Position numbers and translations under genes: made by a program. Shown here piece after piece: positions 4,340 through 64,000 of a DNA stretch of 64,000 nucleotides. Positions within the stretch are counted from its first letter, which is position 1, and each line of letters starts with the position of its first letter. The notes under the pieces were generated by a model. It did not search any database and was not told the DNA's origin. It saw nothing but the letters and a program-made list of their open reading frames with translations. Origin of the DNA: Octopus vulgaris (lineage: Eukaryota); contig OX597838.1 in NCBI GenBank assembly GCA_951406725.2, forward strand, positions 1,116,001 to 1,180,000, read 5' to 3'.

Positions 4340-5545
4340 GAGTCAAAATGTCAAATACAAAGATATAAAACAATGGATTGATTGAGACTGGCACCTAAAG
4401 CAGTGTACACGAGGGTAGTTGTGGACTCTTGGAGCCTTGGCCAGCAACCCACCTAGTGATGGTGTCACGGTAAAAATACTGGTGATTGCACAACCTTACA
4501 ATTACTACCTCTAGATGAGTGATGTCAAAATTGAATAATAACCACAACTGCGCTAACAGGACTGGAACTGTTAACAGTGAAGGTGTTGCGCACGGCAGGC
4601 AGGGAGTAACTAATCAAGTTCTGGTAGGTTGTCATCAAGCTATTGATCAGAACCAAAATTGCAGTCCAAAGAGCAAATGGGGAAAAAATGAAATGGGTAA
4701 AAGAAATAAACAAAACAGTAATAGAAAGCTGGCTGAGAAGTGAGCCAAATAAAAGAGGGTTCATGAATGGAATGAAGAGAATATGGGATGAAAAAGGAGG
4801 TTTTGAAGCATCCGTTGAGTGATTGATAGACCAAGCAAGAGCAATCTTTGGGAATTACTGGATTACGGGAGTAGAGATTGAAGAAATTCCAAGAAACATA
4901 AAAGCAAATGAAAAAGAACCAAACTGGAGGAAGAGAATACGAATGAAGCCGGAAAAGACACGGAAAGAAGTGGGATAATTGAATTGGATAATGATAGGAG
5001 AACCCAAGAATAAGATAGTAATCAGAAAATTGAGTAGACAGTGCAAGTTAGAAGAAAGAGGAAAGCAAAAAGTACATGAAAAATTGGTACACAAGGTGAC
5101 AGCACTAAAAGAATAGACTGTTCCAAACAAATAGAAGGCATCTATTTGAGGAAATAGAGGGAAGCCAACACCAGGAACTGATTCTAGATGTGGAAGAAAG
5201 TAAAGAATTTTGGGGAAGGCTGTGGAACAGGCTGGCAAAACATAAAGAAAGAGTGGAGTGGTTAACAAATGTGGAAAGACAACTTGCAACTGTACCAAGA
5301 CAAAAGGACATCAAAATTAATCTATATACAGTGAGACAGAACTTAAAAAAAGATAGCAAATTGGAAAGGACCAGGCCCAGAGGGAGTACAAGGCTATTGG
5401 CTGAAGAATTTTGCACAATTGCATGAAAAGACTGCTTCACAACTGGATGACTGCCTGCAGCAAGGTCAGGTCCCTGCCTGGATGACAAGTGAACAAATGC
5501 TGCTATGCCTCGAGGATCCCTTGAAAGGGAATTTGGCATCATTGA
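4340..5545 (+). mobile_element. Decayed R4/Dong-clade non-LTR retrotransposon, region N-terminal to the RT domain
   Basis: Frame-shifted peptides EESKEFWGRLW, NWKGPGPEGVQGYWLKNF, CLQQGQVPAWMT and EDPLKG resemble the R4/Dong pre-RT region. Confidence 0.7.
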
Positions 5546-7096
5546 ATTAACACTGAATGCAGCTAAACCCCTTTATTTATGTGCACTTTAGGTTTTCTGG
5601 AAGCTAAATCTGATTGAACACCACCACATTACAACTAGTTTTCTAGACATCTTTCCATTATAGGAAGCTACATCTCATTATTTACATCACACTACAAACC
5701 AGTAGTTCTATCTATAGTTTACAACTAGCAATAATTAACAGTCATTAGTCCTAGAGTATTATGTTTTTATGTAGATTAGTGATTATCTACCGACGTTTTT
5801 CTAGTGGCATCTCTTTTATATTCTTGACCCAAAACAATAAGACAGCAATAATAAACTCTGGAAGAAAATACAACGGTCTCTCCGCATGGTTGTCTGATTT
5901 TTCTGCCAGTGTGTGCTTGAGTTTGCACACACACACACATACATGCACAGACATGCACAAACACGCGCACACACACACAGACACACACACATACACACAC
6001 ACACAATTCTTCCCCCAAACAAAGTCTATCAGTAATTTACCAGACAGTTACCGCTAAACACTTATTCTTTATTTCGCTGTTATCTTTAATTGTTTCTCAT
6101 TAAGAAAATGCTATTTTTATTTCAATTTCTTATTTGCAAACTTAACGTTTTAATGTATTGATTCCATTTTAGAATTTTCAGGTTTTTTTCCTTTTTTTTC
6201 CTAAGATCTTTTAATTAAAACATTTTCAATGACCTGTTTAATGGCTTAAATGTTTTAAGTGGTAACTGTTTGAAATTGTCTACTTTTAATCTTACAATCA
6301 AAACACTTAAGGTTTTAATAGACTGTGTTTTATCTGTAGAATGTTGAGCTCTTGATATAGTTTATTTAGATATCTGTTAATGTTATTTTAATGTCAACTG
6401 TCCAGTATATGCCATATTGCTGCAGATTGACCACAATGTTATATTCATTGAACTGCAATTCTAACCATGTACAAAGTTGTAGCAGGCATTCATAACCAAA
6501 TCTCTGAATACATGGTCAGATATCACAAGCAAACCCCAATTTCCACAAGATATGTCTATTAAGCAAACAATCAGCATCAAGCCACCACGTGATTCAATTT
6601 TCTAGAATCTTCTTTTGGTTCCCTATAAAAGAATCCTTTTTGGTGCCAACTCTTTGCAGGGTGTTGAGACCATCCGACTCATTTACACGTCTCACAGGTA
6701 GAGCATTGAAGGTGGCTGAGTGAAATACGCTTCCAGCTCTTGCCAGGGACATTCATGCTGACATCTTGGACAGACTCAACTAAACATTCACACAATGTCT
6801 CACACGTATCATCTCTCGATGTGGTGCTATTCTTCCATCTCTCCCACAGTGTAATTATTGTTGTTAGTATTTGTAAAAGACTAACACAGAGACCACCATA
6901 TGGTAATTGTTTGTGAGTGTTGTCAGTTACTTCTTCACTCTGCCAAGAAATACATTTTCATTTGCCAACACAACAGCAACTACCACCACCACAACAACTA
7001 CCAAGCAACAAATTGATTCCACTCTGTTGAGTTTCACATTCACAGTCATCTCCTGCAAACTGTAGAATATATATATATTTGGAGAGAAGACAAGCA

Positions 7097-38216: not shown

Positions 38217-38448
38217 GTATTGAAAGAAATATCCCAGGTAGTAAAATATCTGGCCCTGTAAAAAGGGGACAGTATCATATTCAACAAAACAACAACAATA
38301 ATAATGTTGGTATGATGAGCAGGAAATCAATGGAGCGTGCGGCAGCAGCAGCAGCAGCACCACCACCACCACCACCACCAGTCACACCTCCAACCTCTAA
38401 CATGAGATACTCCCCAAGACAACCAACTACAGATAGTTCTTCTGCCAG
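38217..38448 (+). CDS. SPATA22: SPATA22 exon (SIERNIPGSK...QQNNNNNN...AAAAAAAPPPPPPP...DSSSA)
   Basis: TTGCAG acceptor, AG|GTATTG donor; 232 nt open, phase 1 to phase 2, consistent with both neighbours. Confidence 0.8.
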
Positions 38449-38564
38449 GTATTGCACTTCATCTCTTTCCTTTAACAATCCCTAACTGGGGAACATCAAG
38501 TTAGATTGTGTGAAGAATATTGGTTTCCTTCTTGAGTCATTTGGTTTCCTTCATTTCTTGTTGG

Positions 38565-38599
<35 letters not shown>

Positions 38600-38866
38600 T
38601 ATTAACTATTGATTTATATAATATTTTTGTATGCTTTTGATGTTCTCATTTGTAAAATGAATAAATAATCTAACATTATAATATCCGTAAGTTGATGAAC
38701 AAACTGAATTTGTTTCTCCATTTTCTTATTTATATTATATATATATATAAAGTTAATCCAAACAAGAAAACACAGAAAAAAAGAGAAAAAAATGAGAAAA
38801 AACACAGCAACATATATATATATATATATAAATTAATCAAAATAAAAATATGATGCCAAGGATTCA

Positions 38867-38944
38867 GCGGTATATATGTTTCAGGCCTTTATTAGACGGA
38901 TTTATAACAATGCATAATGTGTGTCTATGGCCTTCTTCAGCCGC
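38867..38944 (-). ncRNA. Second hammerhead copy on the opposite strand with a G-to-A change in stem III
   Basis: Reverse complement reads GCGG CTGAAGA AGGCC...GGCCT GAAAC ATAT ATA CCGC. Identical to the + copy except ATA replaces GTA (position 38873). Confidence 0.75.
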
Positions 38945-39162
38945 GCACAACTACTACCTCAAGGACATGTATTACATCAAAAATTCTACGTTGGGGATGC
39001 AAATCCTCTCATTCGCATACGACATAATGCGGCAACAGCATGGACGAGATGGATGCTTCATTTTTATGCTGTTGCCGCATTATGTCTTACACGAATGAGA
39101 GGATTTGCATCCCCCACATAGAATTTTTGATGTAATACATGTCCTTGGGGTAGTAGTTGTGC

Positions 39163-39240
39163 GCGGCTGAAGAAGGCCATAGACACACATTATGCATTGT
39201 TATAAATCCGTCTAATAAAGGCCTGAAACATATGTACCGC
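39163..39240 (+). ncRNA. Type I hammerhead ribozyme, Penelope-like minimal stem III with palindromic loop
   Basis: GCGG (stem I) - CTGAAGA core - AGGCC...GGCCT stem II (extended by TAGAC/GTCTA) - GAAAC - ATAT - GTA (cleavage after 39236) - CCGC (stem I'). ACATATGT is self-complementary. Confidence 0.85.
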
Positions 39241-40294
39241 TGAATCCTTGGCATCATGTTTTTATTTTGATTAATTTACTCCACCACCTACACCACCAAA
39301 CGGTATATACAGGTGCTTACAATTATCAAGTACTCACCCAGAATTTCTGTACCCAACTCTCTCTCTCTCTCTATATATATATATATTAGAGATGGCTGAA
39401 TTAACTGTTGTTATTGTTGCTGTGACCATCCCATCTTTCTCCAGGACCACATTACCTAACATGCTTTTCCATTTTATAGATGTTGGTATACGATTTGAAG
39501 GCAACCTGGCTGCTATTTTTAGCAAATTGAGTGTAGTTTGAAGTGGTCTGGACAAGTGATGTGAAAACATTAAATGTATTGTGTGCTGATGATGGAAGTT
39601 GGCAGAGAAAGTCATGAATGGAAGGGGTGAAGTGTAGAGCAGAGGATTGAAACAGCCACCTGCCAACCATATTGCCCACCCATCCTGTCTATTCTACAAC
39701 ACAGACATTAAAGCATTGACGTTGACAATGTTGATGATATAAAGGATTCCCACTTGTTGATCAGCTGTCTCTTTGTCCTCCATGTTGATTCGAACAATAA
39801 CAGCAATGTCATTTCTTTGACCTCAACCAATTCCCTTTTCGGTTGTGACTGTGCAACCCAAATGCAAGTGTTTCTTTATTCACTTCTACCATTGGTGCAC
39901 AATACAAGCAACCCACATCATATTTCCACCAATCACACACAGTCTGTTTCGGTGCCATAAACCAATCAATGCCTTTCATGTATGTCTTTGTGTCATCCTC
40001 GTGTCATACATGTAAATTCATTTCTCACAGCTCACTGTTGCAGTTCTCTGGATCATGTGATCCTAGACCAATTTTTTCAAACAGCAACTTGTTTTCAATA
40101 TTTGAATTTGTAAACCTAGCTAATCCACTCTTTTATGACATGAAAATAGTATAAAATATTCCTATTGTTAGTAGGTTGTCAATTATCACTGGTCATGTAA
40201 TGTGTTCCTGTAACAATCTGTAAAGACTCTCCAAGCTCTTTGTCTCTGTGAAAGGTCAAAATTTCAGTTTGAATGTTTTCTCTTTTAATTGTAG

Positions 40295-40478
40295 GTCAAG
40301 CTATAATTGGTCATTTTCTGCTCAGTCCTGTAAATCTGTCTCATCTCCTCAAATGTTTGGTGGTGAATCATTTATTCAGGAAGCTAATGTTGCCGAAGTA
40401 GCACCTGCCTTTAACAATAGACCAAGTAATGAACCTAAACACAGTCCAAGCTATTCTCAGACCAACACATCGTCAAAG
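40295..40478 (+). CDS. SPATA22: SPATA22 exon (RSSYNWSFSAQ...QTNTSSK)
   Basis: TTGTAG acceptor, AAG|GTCAGA donor; phase 2 to phase 0, open frame. Confidence 0.82.
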
Positions 40479-57819: not shown

Positions 57820-58660
57820 CGAGCACTTTCAGTAATTGTTGCTAGTTGACTTGCCCCTCCAAGAGCCTAGTTGCAGACCTACTGACCTGTCCTGGTTTAT
57901 GAGTGCACCGGTACATTCCTGATATTCTTTCAGTTTAGTGTCAATCTTTTCTATGTCCAAAGAGTCCGGCACCATGACAGTGATGTTGTCCGTGTATGCA
58001 GGCACAGCTATTCTGTGGAATACCTTCAAATTCTCCATCCTTCACAGCAAGGGTTCTATAGCTAAAATATATAAAAGCAGGGAGAAGGGGCATCCTGAGC
58101 ATTCAATACTGAAAAGTCCCAAGAAGTGGTTCTTCAGTTTGACAACCAAGCAGATGCCACTATATATTGTGATGATCCAATCTCTGAAGAGGGGATTGAA
58201 ACCAACAGCTTTTAGGACAGACACCAGATAACAATGGTTCACCCTGTCAAAAGCTTTGGGTTGTTCCAGATTGACCAGTGCCCTTCCAAAGCCCAATCTA
58301 TTCAGACCTGTTCTACCATGTATCAGATGAGGTGGAGACTGTTGTGCATAGATCTACTGGGGTTTGCACTAGTTTGTGCATCCCCGACAACAAGCGCCAG
58401 CCTCTTGGCTAGCACCTTAGCTAAAATCAGTGTTAAGTTAAGTTAAGGGCCTGACGTTTTCATTCACCTCCTTCTCATTCAGATCCCTTCTCAGCAGCGT
58501 CACCGCTTCCCAACCACATGGCTGGGAATGCTTTCCATCAGTTACCAGGAGCTATTGAAACTAGTTCAAATAAGTCCGACATGTGGGCATATAGTTCATA
58601 GGGCAGACCCTCCAACCCGGTGATTTGCACCCCACACAGTGCCCCAGTACATCTTCCACT
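57820..58660 (-). mobile_element. L1/Tx1-clade reverse transcriptase relic
   Basis: Peptides KAFDRVNH.YL..VLKAVGF, GCPFSLLLYILAIEPLL and AYTDNITV (YADD-like) in shifted frames. Confidence 0.8.
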
Positions 58661-59168: not shown

Positions 59169-62100
59169 CACATATAAAACAGTGCTTGTGCCATGAAAAA
59201 GCTCCCAGTACACTCTGTAAATTGTTTGGCTTTAAGGACATCCAGCTGGAAACTGTGTGAAAGGAGACATTGGACCTATTTTTGGACCCATGGAATCCTG
59301 TCATAGCCCCTATATTTAGTCCTATTGATCTTGCTACATTTCAGAATGCACATAAACTGTGTTATATATAATTGTATTGATCTGTAGTTCTATAAACACA
59401 TTCTACGTTCTATAGAGTTTGTATAGATCCATTTAGATTTGTAGATTAGACATGTATGTGTTCTCGTAACACAACCCCCTTTTAATTAATAACCTGTCTG
59501 TAAACTAATTAGTAAATCACTGCAGCAATCACAGTCACTCACTGTAATTACATTTCAGTTAATTATATTGATGTAATCAGTGATTGGTTAGGAATATTGA
59601 GAGATGTTTTTTTTTTATCTGTTAGCCGCAGGGAGATTTCTTCTCCATTGTGATCCTTATCAATGTCACGATCATCATCATGGGTCGGACAGAGTTCATT
59701 GAAGCAAGTTTTCTACAGCCAAATGCCCTTCTTACTGCCAACCCTCACCTATTTCCAAGAAAGTTAATGTTTCCCCCATAATCAGGCACTGCTCAGATGA
59801 CAGTGGCCCTCATTTATAGCTGCCAAAACAAGTAGACACATACACATGAGGGTTTTTTTTCAGTTTTTGTCTAATTCATAAGGCTTAGAAGATATTTCCC
59901 TGATATATTATGCAATGGGACTGAACCCAGAACCAGGTGGTTTGAAGCAAACCTCTTACCACACAGCCGCACCTGCATCTTTGTGTGTGTGTTGACATGG
60001 TTATAAATGAGCCTCACCATCATGCGAGTGACTCCTTTCCAGTCTTCCATGCAGAACGTGTCTGGCCATGGGGAAAATGTTACTTTGCTTGGAAACAGCT
60101 GAAAGTCAATGACTGGGAAAGAAACTGGTTGCAGAAAATCTGTCTGACCCAAGCAAGCATGGGAAAGTGAACGCTGAATCAATGAGGATTTATACATCAA
60201 CATCATTTGATGTCTACTTTCCCACACTGGGATGGGGCAGAAAGGTTTGACAGCAATTGGCAAATCAGAAGACTGCACCAAGCTCTGCACCTTTCCTGTT
60301 TCGGTTATGGTTTCTATGGCTGGATGCCCACCACTTTGCAGAGTGTACTGGGGGCTTTTTACATGGCACTCGAAGCAGCTGGGGTCACCAAGTAACTTGC
60401 TGGACAAGACTCCTCGAATGAGACATAGTCGTCTTGAGGGGCAGAGAAGGGGTCTTGCTTTAGAAGAGAAACATGGCTGCCTCAAATAGAGAAAGATGGG
60501 GCCATACACAAGTTACAGGTTTCATCTGTCTCACCCCCCACCCTTCAAGGCAGCTTCTATTGTTACTTTATCATAACATCACCAACTCCGTTGTTGTCCC
60601 ACTGGGCAAATGTTAATTTTTATCCCGTTTTGGTATCTTTGTTTAGCCCTAGGCTAATCTTGAGCACACCATCCTGTCTTTATGTAGGATTATCTCATTT
60701 CCTTATTTTAGATAATTTAATATTTGGTTGCTGTTTCTGGTATATCAGGTTATAACTAAGAGGGTCTTTCATTGGCTCCAATTGTCAGAGTTGACACACT
60801 CCACTCATCTGAGTGTGTGGGGGGTGGGGAGGAGAATGGGAATGGAAAGTAGATTGGGGACATGAAACTGAAGAGGATTTAGAATCACTTGTCTAGTCTA
60901 TGGCTCAATAGCCCCAACCTCAACATGTACCCTGCCTCTTTCAGAGACTATCATATTTCTTCCCTCCAGTTTTCAGTTCAAATCCTACTCGGGTCAGCTT
61001 GTCTTTTTCATTTCCTTTCAGAGTTAATAAAGTAACAGAAAAATGTGATTTTCAGGCTCCCTAATAACAGGTGACATTGTGCCTCAGTCAAAAGCAGTCG
61101 ATGACAGATCAATATTGGTCAGCAGTGCATCTTATTGATATTGCTGTTTTGATCACATAGCAACTCTGTCGAGTTTTCTATTTCCTGACCAACACCAACT
61201 CATTTCACTGCAATAATTCATATACTTTGATGTCACTGTTAAGAACATCTATTTGGGTCACCATTTGAGAGTCTTCCACCCAAATATCTCTTCTCTTTTT
61301 CAAGCCCCGTTTGTCCCTCCCTTTCCACCATAGCATTGCTATTCTGTTGATTCCCCACTCCACCTTCCTCTATACATCCAAGTTTCATCTGTCACTCTAC
61401 CCTCCCCACCTCTTTTGGATTCATGTCAACTCCCTGCTCAGGCACCCTTGGCAAAATATTCTACCATCCCATTTATTTTCTCATCTCTCTACCTTGAGAG
61501 TTCACTCTTGACACATCACCACTCTCTCTCTCTCTCAGAGACTAAGGTAACCATGTCGCTCTTCTTGTTTCTCTCCTCCCCTGGCACAAGACAGCCTCCT
61601 CTCTCCAGCCTTGCCAGCTCCTGTCAAACCATCCAACCCATGCCAGCATGAAAAACGGACATCAAATGATGATGAATCCCTCCCCTTGTAGAGTGGATGG
61701 CCACACTGAAAGAAGTGCTAAGATTAAATACACCTTACAATCACAAGGGGTCCTTCATTTCAGATTCCTTTAATAGAAATTCCCAATTCAGACAATGGAC
61801 TCATCATCACCATTTTGTGTCTATTTTCTAACAGGGTCTGACATGTTGGAGGCCACATCTTACTCCAATGCCTCCGTTTTGGTAAGGCTTTCTTTGCCTC
61901 TTCCTAAAAGTTTCCTGTGACATTTTGTCTTTATGGTCGCAGGATTTCAAAGGCTGTATTGCCATTGGCAAGATTAAAGAACCCTCTTCAGCTCATTAAC
62001 CATAAATGTGGTGGGCTGGAGTGGAGGTGCCTTTTGTGGAATCAGCACAGTTGGCAGTTTGCAAAGCAAAAGAGGGAAACAATGACAGGGTATTATCAGA

Positions 62101-62963: not shown

Positions 62964-63120
62964 CTGAAAGAAAGAAAGAATTTATATAAGAGACCAGAAA
63001 ACATGATTTGATGATGTTCATGCATTTCCCAAAATCATCTAAAGTAGAAAGGTAACAACACTGAGTGACAACAGATTTAATTGAACAAATTACCTAAATA
63101 TTCTCACATACCACTAAATC

Positions 63121-63224
63121 AAATTTTTTCATTTTTGACACTTTAGAGACATCAGATCTTGTAGAACCATCAGAACTTGTGAAATGACCTGATGTCTCTA
63201 AAGTGTCAAAAGTGAAAAAAATTT
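63121..63224. repeat. Inverted repeat / hairpin (about 38-bp stem, 27-nt loop) in the SUPT4H1 intron
   Basis: TTTTGACACTTTAGAGACATCAG pairs with CTGATGTCTCTAAAGTGTCAAAA; weaker pairing extends to about 63096-63250. Confidence 0.9.
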
Positions 63225-64000
63225 CATAGAAGGGATGTGAAGAATTTTTTTTTTAAACTCATTTTTGAATTACCCCCTTCCTCTATTAGTGTACAAAAGG
63301 TATAAAAATTCAGCGTAACCCTATGCGTGCCTCACCAAAATATTACCGTGCCCCACATTGGGAATCATGGATTTGACCATAGTATATTACTGGTATGAGA
63401 TTGTAATAAATTTATTTAAATGTCAGCAGTGAGCTAAATAGCAGTTATTAGGGGTTGAGAGCCGTAATATTTATGCCTTTTCCAGACACAGTAAACACTT
63501 GACCTAATGTCATACACCCCCAGCCCCCCCCCCCCCCCGTCATTTACGTCCTCCAAACTCTGCCCCCCCCCCCACCAATTATACTGATGTCAACAAGTGG
63601 GTCCAAGACTCAGTAAATCCTAAGCCAGTCCCAACTCTGATTCCAGCCACGACTATCCCTTCTGTTTTGTATATCAAGCATGGCCTAATGTACCCTTCTT
63701 TAAGACACTAGGGTTAAGTTTGAGGGCTGCTATTTTTTAGGAGGCCAAACACGTCCAGCCTCCTACTTTATATAACGGAGACGAGTGGCAGCTGCACCAC
63801 CACCAAAACTTCAAATCCTAATGAAACCAACTTTTCGTTTGAGGTTAGTGAACAACAACAACAACAACAATACACTGAGGTATATGGGGGGGGGGGAGTT
63901 TATTACTCCTTTATTTCGTTTTTTTTTACCCCTCTTTGTACAGAAATATTGAGGCAGTGGGGGGGGGGGGGGCTTTCTCCCATTCACTGGTTCCATATGA

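Follow-up and report, generated by a model that had tools for sequence, protein, structure and literature searches.

A hammerhead-bearing hairpin in a SPATA22-like intron of Octopus vulgaris as a probable head-to-head pair of truncated Hydra-type Penelope-like 3' ends

Introduction

Insertions of Penelope-like elements (PLEs) show a characteristic layout, in which a copy is accompanied by an inverted 5'-truncated neighbor and carries a tail on one side only (PMC8557442; PMC3846280). For a Poseidon element, both strands of the target are described as being cut and extended, and the tail as the interval between two start sites of reverse transcription (PMC11167929). Self-priming on an antisense template has been published as an alternative (PMC3846280). 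Among the PLEs, the Hydra clade is defined by the protein motifs DKT, CxCX5C, and CxxC/CxH (Craig et al. 2021, PMC8557442). Minimal hammerhead ribozymes have been described in PLEs; a single one did not cleave and dimers cleaved little (Cervera and de la Pena 2014, PMC4209133). The Poseidon ribozyme is reported to be assisted by protein and to be dispensable in vitro (PMC11167929). Splicing was still seen in introns that a hammerhead had cut, unlike in those cut by a fast HDV ribozyme (as cited in PMC2995048).

Here we analyze a hairpin from Octopus vulgaris that contains a hammerhead motif and lies in an intron of a putative meiosis gene. Its layout and its motif are already known from other systems. 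The family to which it belongs was without a published description in the literature that we searched on octopus, hammerheads, PLEs, and the Hydra clade, and the main text of an octopus repeat annotation (PMC13282606) contains neither "Hydra" nor "hammerhead".

Results

Host Gene and Hairpin

The window is the whole stretch of 64,000 nucleotides that was analyzed (assembly GCA_951406725.2, contig OX597838.1), and all coordinates refer to it. An exon query retrieved from NCBI a "spermatogenesis-associated protein 22-like" sequence with 98% identity, and the SPATA22-like protein maps onto eight coding stretches of the + strand between 25900 and 56963. A preliminary description had placed the motif in a gene required for meiosis, and these matches support a SPATA22-like host; the name rests on the NCBI label, as the host protein (P0001) matched nothing in Pfam or PDB. 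SPATA22 is described as meiosis-specific in mammals and essential together with MEIOB (PMC7523692). The element lies 380 nt from the donor of a GT-AG intron of 1846 nt (38449–40294, + strand), between coding exons 38217–38448 and 40295–40478, which are in phase. A Pfam scan of 40 candidate frames returned a single weak DUF match. Elsewhere in the window, broken frames at 4519–5572 (+), 57832–58041 (−), and 59871–60512 (−) resemble by eye LINE-type reverse transcriptase (RT) remnants; the two that were scanned had no Pfam match. The window also contains another, degenerate fold-back (63096–63249, 75%).

The inverted repeat consists of two 213-nt arms without gaps (38829–39041 and 39066–39278), 96% complementary and separated by 24 nt. 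The complete hairpin has a predicted folding energy of −375.5 kcal/mol. These arms and their eight differences are as first described, and the extent of the insertion is not. The right copy continues past its arm into a one-sided tail of 79 nt (39279–39357, +), a PLE signature, followed by (TC)n(TA)n (39358–39386). Likewise, the 24-nt "loop" (39042–39065, +) is not a separate loop: it is ordinary 3'UTR sequence of the family and belongs to the + copy. The locus is thus composed of two 5'-truncated 3' ends (pseudo-LTR, or pLTR, regions) of the same element: a short form without tail on the − strand (38829–39041) and a long, tailed form on the + strand (39042–39357). Their truncation points lie 101 and 125 nt upstream of the core of the hammerhead, and the joint between them, at 39041/39042, is blunt. 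The left arm ends in a (TA)n tract (38812–38830), the likely target, and with (TA)n on both sides of the insertion a target-site duplication is unreadable.

Directly to the left, the segment 38520–38811 is a stack of other repeat ends lying between (TA)n runs. Positions 38609–38782 are of very high copy number, and a related family appears to have left a short end on the − strand at 38750–38811. This segment is likely a hotspot for TA-targeting elements.

Element Family

The arm is a dispersed repeat with 1665 candidate matches, 40 of which were scored and are 95–98% identical to it. One 28-mer has 259 exact matches in the genome, which puts the number of close copies in the family at 259 or more, and a 24-mer common to sister subfamilies has 1862 (1828 + 34). 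Over positions 39042–39346, the right copy is 95–97% identical to other copies of the family. In L031, L055, and L060, the arm corresponds to the 3' end of an element and lies at the end of a UTR of about 2.5 kb, behind an open reading frame (ORF) ending in GIY-YIG. This ORF, linked to a 3' end of the window type, encodes an RT followed by a C-terminal GIY-YIG domain, the organization of endonuclease-positive (EN+) PLEs. Direct Pfam scans of the element ORFs gave no match. Their homologs carry PF01541, which we take to be GIY-YIG.

The same genome contains sister copies with open frames of 800–850 aa. P0122 is a complete ORF of a sister subfamily, whose pLTR is 92% identical to that of the window; L055, of the same subfamily as the window, is 95.7% identical and has the same protein motifs split over two frame pieces. 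The protein harbors YRDD, ADKT (in both L055 and P0122), a CxCX5C linker, and CxxC (CQLC) and CxH (CIH) motifs placed around conserved E and N residues. The RWK position, conserved as RWK in 86 of the 120 top homologs, reads RWA here. The protein lacks CX2-5CxxC and, as judged by eye, CCHH. Since DKT, CxCX5C, and CxxC/CxH are found together without CX2-5CxxC, these motifs point to the Hydra clade of C-terminal EN+ PLEs as the probable place of the family. An assignment to Neptune was considered and dropped, the CxCX5C linker being present instead of CX2-5CxxC. The suggestion that the hairpin is an inverted pseudo-LTR remnant of a Penelope family is upheld by the link of the 3' end to an RT/GIY-YIG ORF and by the one-sided tail.

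Pairs and 5' Ends

The first 100 of the 259 28-mer matches come from 81 loci, and we surveyed 80 of these. At least 35 are head-to-head pairs, one has another arrangement, and 44 have no partner, the last number being an upper bound as the stretch examined was mostly 1.5 kb upstream. In all head-to-head pairs (35/35), a tail of 70–79 nt is present on exactly one arm, as in the window. The element ends adjoin (TA)n in the pairs inspected and at the window. Outside this sample, L038 (G000:C20:60157500-60165500) is an exception: the hairpin is duplicated there, both arms are short, and a tail is missing. At L095 (G000:C1:113256500-113258300), the hairpin centre contains several repeated 60-nt pieces resembling repeated template jumps near the accumulation of 5' ends described below.

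Among the family loci L065 to L149, 18 of 98 5' ends fall within 6 nt, 138–143 nt upstream of the hammerhead core (1.4 expected); these positions are BLAST ends, checked by eye in part. Seven of them coincide with the A in TCATTC, a motif resembling what we take to be an initiator consensus. Genome-wide, there are 96 exact matches just downstream of this stretch versus 86 just upstream, 53 of them in common. The pile-up may reflect an RNA start, giving run-off cDNAs, or a hotspot of snap-back or microhomology. The window junction lies outside it.

Hammerhead Motif

The motif at 39163–39240 (+) is the sole strict hammerhead match within the window. A relaxed scan yielded one extra loose match at 40080, and none in two reversed controls. 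The type I core (CUGANGA, GAAA, NUH) and stems I and II are present: stem I is formed by 39163–66 and 39237–40, the core CUGAAGA occupies 39167–73, a long stem II follows, and GAAA (39225–28) precedes a 2-bp stem III with a palindromic CAUAUG. With GUA at the cleavage site, the cut is predicted after 39236. In the isolated motif, the predicted pairing probabilities are 0.87 for stem I and 1.0 for stem II. For stem III the value is about 0.1, and 0.02 when the right copy is folded by itself; a stable helix III is thus not predicted for the monomer. Rfam reported no hammerhead at the gathering score or at E ≤ 5, merely generic miRNA-hairpin noise.

The preliminary description placed an antisense copy first and a hammerhead second in transcripts of either strand. 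As a layout this applies to both strands. Stem III is intact in the sense motif on the + strand. On the − strand, there is a mirror motif (38867–38944) whose stem III is lost through a C.A mismatch (C15.2.A16.2). The motif scan found no second sense hammerhead in the window that could make a dimer.

The conserved G10.1-C11.1 pair is absent, and both arms carry U11.1 (U at 39224 in the + motif, where most copies have C). This variant is rare, with 34 versus 1828 copies among the 24-mer matches, sister subfamilies included. It occurs in both arms of 5 of the 15 U11.1-carrying pairs in which both arms are covered. A second hairpin, L112 (G000:C25:69200-70800), located on the same contig 1.08 Mb away, has three uncommon variants in common with the right arm of the window (39054T, 39148G, and 39224T), which suggests a same donor lineage or conversion. 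These doubly U11.1 pairs, together with the variants of L112, indicate that U11.1 was likely inherited from the donor element. At 39148, the left arm of the window has the majority letter, as after a back-mutation or from a second template. U11.1 allows a plain 5-bp stem II in the + motif (A10.1-U11.1), and some activity is possible. The hammerhead copies are too alike for covariation analysis.

Arm Differences

Six of the eight arm mismatches are transitions and two are pyrimidine-pyrimidine. Three give G-U pairs in the + RNA (38849/39258, 38873/39234, and 38959/39148), the number previously noted, and three others give G-U pairs in the − RNA. Because six mismatches are transitions, three wobbles on one strand are what chance would give (P = 0.66), and a meaning of the count is not supported. 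At the three + wobble sites (38849, 38873, and 38959), the left arm has T and the right arm G, none in a CpG; three sites do not suffice to establish a mutational signature.

The arms diverge by 3.8%, compared with 1.8% pooled over 22 pairs overlapping by at least 150 nt, two of which are as diverged as the window arms. The right arm differs from the family majority at eight positions and the left arm at six, three being in common. Every difference between the arms is one-sided, and none is compensated. This divergence likely corresponds to the decay of a moderately old insertion, neutrality being a reading that rests on eight sites and has low power.

Discussion

We interpret the hairpin, with a probability of about 0.88, as a head-to-head pair of 5'-truncated Hydra-type Penelope-like 3' ends, flanked by TA repeats within an intron of a SPATA22-like gene, that probably arose in one insertion event and has probably decayed under neutrality since then. 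According to the two-strand priming model, taken over from a Poseidon element, both strands at a (TA)n target would have been cleaved by the RT/GIY-YIG protein of the element. Two cDNAs would have been primed at start sites separated by 70–79 nt along the RNA of the element, so that one arm is short and the other tailed. The two cDNAs would have stopped early and then been joined bluntly. Folding of the pre-mRNA is predicted to pair the arms in a helix of about 213 bp that would bury the ribozyme as a by-product.

Could the hairpin have been kept for what it does? The preliminary description proposed that the antisense arm captures the emerging ribozyme, which would explain its tolerance in a gene required for meiosis. 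Folding predictions support the capture: 175 of 180 right-arm bases pair with the left arm once the motif has just emerged, and capture occurs at all prefix lengths tested, stem I having a probability of 1e-84 in the hairpin. A selected lock, in which an insertion whose sense hammerhead would cleave the SPATA22 pre-mRNA could persist only with an upstream antisense arm, would also fit the order of the arms on the + strand and the preservation of stem III in the + motif while the − motif has lost it. We consider such a lock very unlikely. The head-to-head arrangement of at least 35 of the 80 loci requires no special cause, up to 44 loci lack a partner in the stretch examined, the site is intronic, and monomers of such motifs are reported as uncleaved (PMC4209133). 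The relatively diverged arms, without compensatory change, give no sign of selection on pairing. Given the weak stem III, U11.1, the lack of a second sense copy for a dimer, and the poor cleavage of PLE hammerheads as monomers, the + motif alone would hardly cleave, so that the need for a lock is doubtful. A germline source of hairpin siRNAs silencing the parent family in meiosis appears equally improbable. It would be consistent with a near-perfect 213-bp intronic helix within a gene described as meiosis-specific in mammals (PMC7523692) and with rotifer Penelope copies being targets of small RNAs (PMC3846280). However, many equal hairpins exist across the genome, the rotifer RNAs are described as piRNA-like, 25–32 nt long, and mostly antisense (PMC3846280), and nuclear dsRNA formed by young repeats within introns is what ADAR usually targets (PMC9989829). 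Across animals, a study that included octopus reports dsRNA of young repeats as the main ADAR target (PMC9989829), so that the helix would most likely be edited from A to I and discarded along with the spliced-out intron. Only marginally less improbable than either is a broader co-option in the SPATA22 intron, combining a self-locking ribozyme in meiotic cells, dsRNA that Dicer or ADAR would turn against the parent family, and a head-to-head layout that would enable PLE ends with a hammerhead to persist on the sense strand of genes.

Two other explanations concern the hairpin as an object, and we regard both as extremely improbable. A nonautonomous palindromic or retrozyme-like family moving as a unit, also raised previously, would account for the many short hairpins of similar size (spacings of 200–290 nt). 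A search for the same centre argues against it: the junction 22-mer of the window occurs once in the 2.8-Gb genome, spacings and junctions all differ among the pairs inspected, the junction of the near twin L101 included, and direct tandems of two hammerhead units were found at none of the 80 loci. As for an assembly fold-back artefact, DNA contigs from four runs, three other organisms among them, contain the family and none of the short-read contigs listed spans the hairpin, as is also expected of a high-copy palindrome. Against an artefact stand the eight arm-specific differences, the different flanks, the in-phase exons on either side, and the asymmetry of loop and tail, as in the 35 other pairs. 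RNA runs are absent from the sequencing runs listed as containing the sequence, which is neutral as evidence. A contig joint at 38751–39492 was set aside as untrusted, having a 25-nt side and lying within repeats.

Under the preferred reading, a pair of Hydra-type 3' ends, the locus as it stands is one more PLE stump. It serves as a clear case of a Hydra family in octopus whose relatives include copies with intact ORFs, and it would gain greater weight only through small RNAs, editing, or an effect on splicing linked to the locus. Across the family, the one-tail rule (35/35) and the clustering of 5' ends set limits to the still open mechanism of PLE insertion.

The family shares with the Hydra clade an RT with C-terminal GIY-YIG, DKT, CxCX5C, CxxC/CxH, a 3' hammerhead, and (TA)n targets (Craig et al. 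2021, PMC8557442). It differs by RWA in place of RWK, a 3'UTR of about 2.5 kb (L031), and a tail of 70–79 nt, longer than the published 30–40 nt. Hydra-1_Obim also has the core CUGAAGA plus one base, and is set apart by eye through its N-terminus and hammerhead row (PMC8557442). Like the inverted pLTR insertions of D. virilis Penelope and Adineta Pen2/Pen2a (PMC2377424; PMC3846280), the locus combines an inverted 5'-truncated neighbor copy with a single-ended tail; unlike them, its copies are cut to 213–316 nt, with no ORF and no readable target duplication. The minimal, type I hammerheads described for PLEs similarly have a short stem I, an extra base after A9, and a small palindromic helix III, and opposite-strand pairs 100–700 bp apart are reported in Schistosoma; the motif analyzed here differs by its very long stem II insert and by U11.1 in place of the conserved G10.1-C11.1 (Cervera and de la Pena 2014, PMC4209133). 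Finally, non-LTR retrozymes also carry a type I hammerhead and derive from PLE pLTRs, but they are described as direct tandem units, whereas the window contains an inverted pair from an ORF-linked family (bioRxiv 10.64898/2026.07.22.740005).
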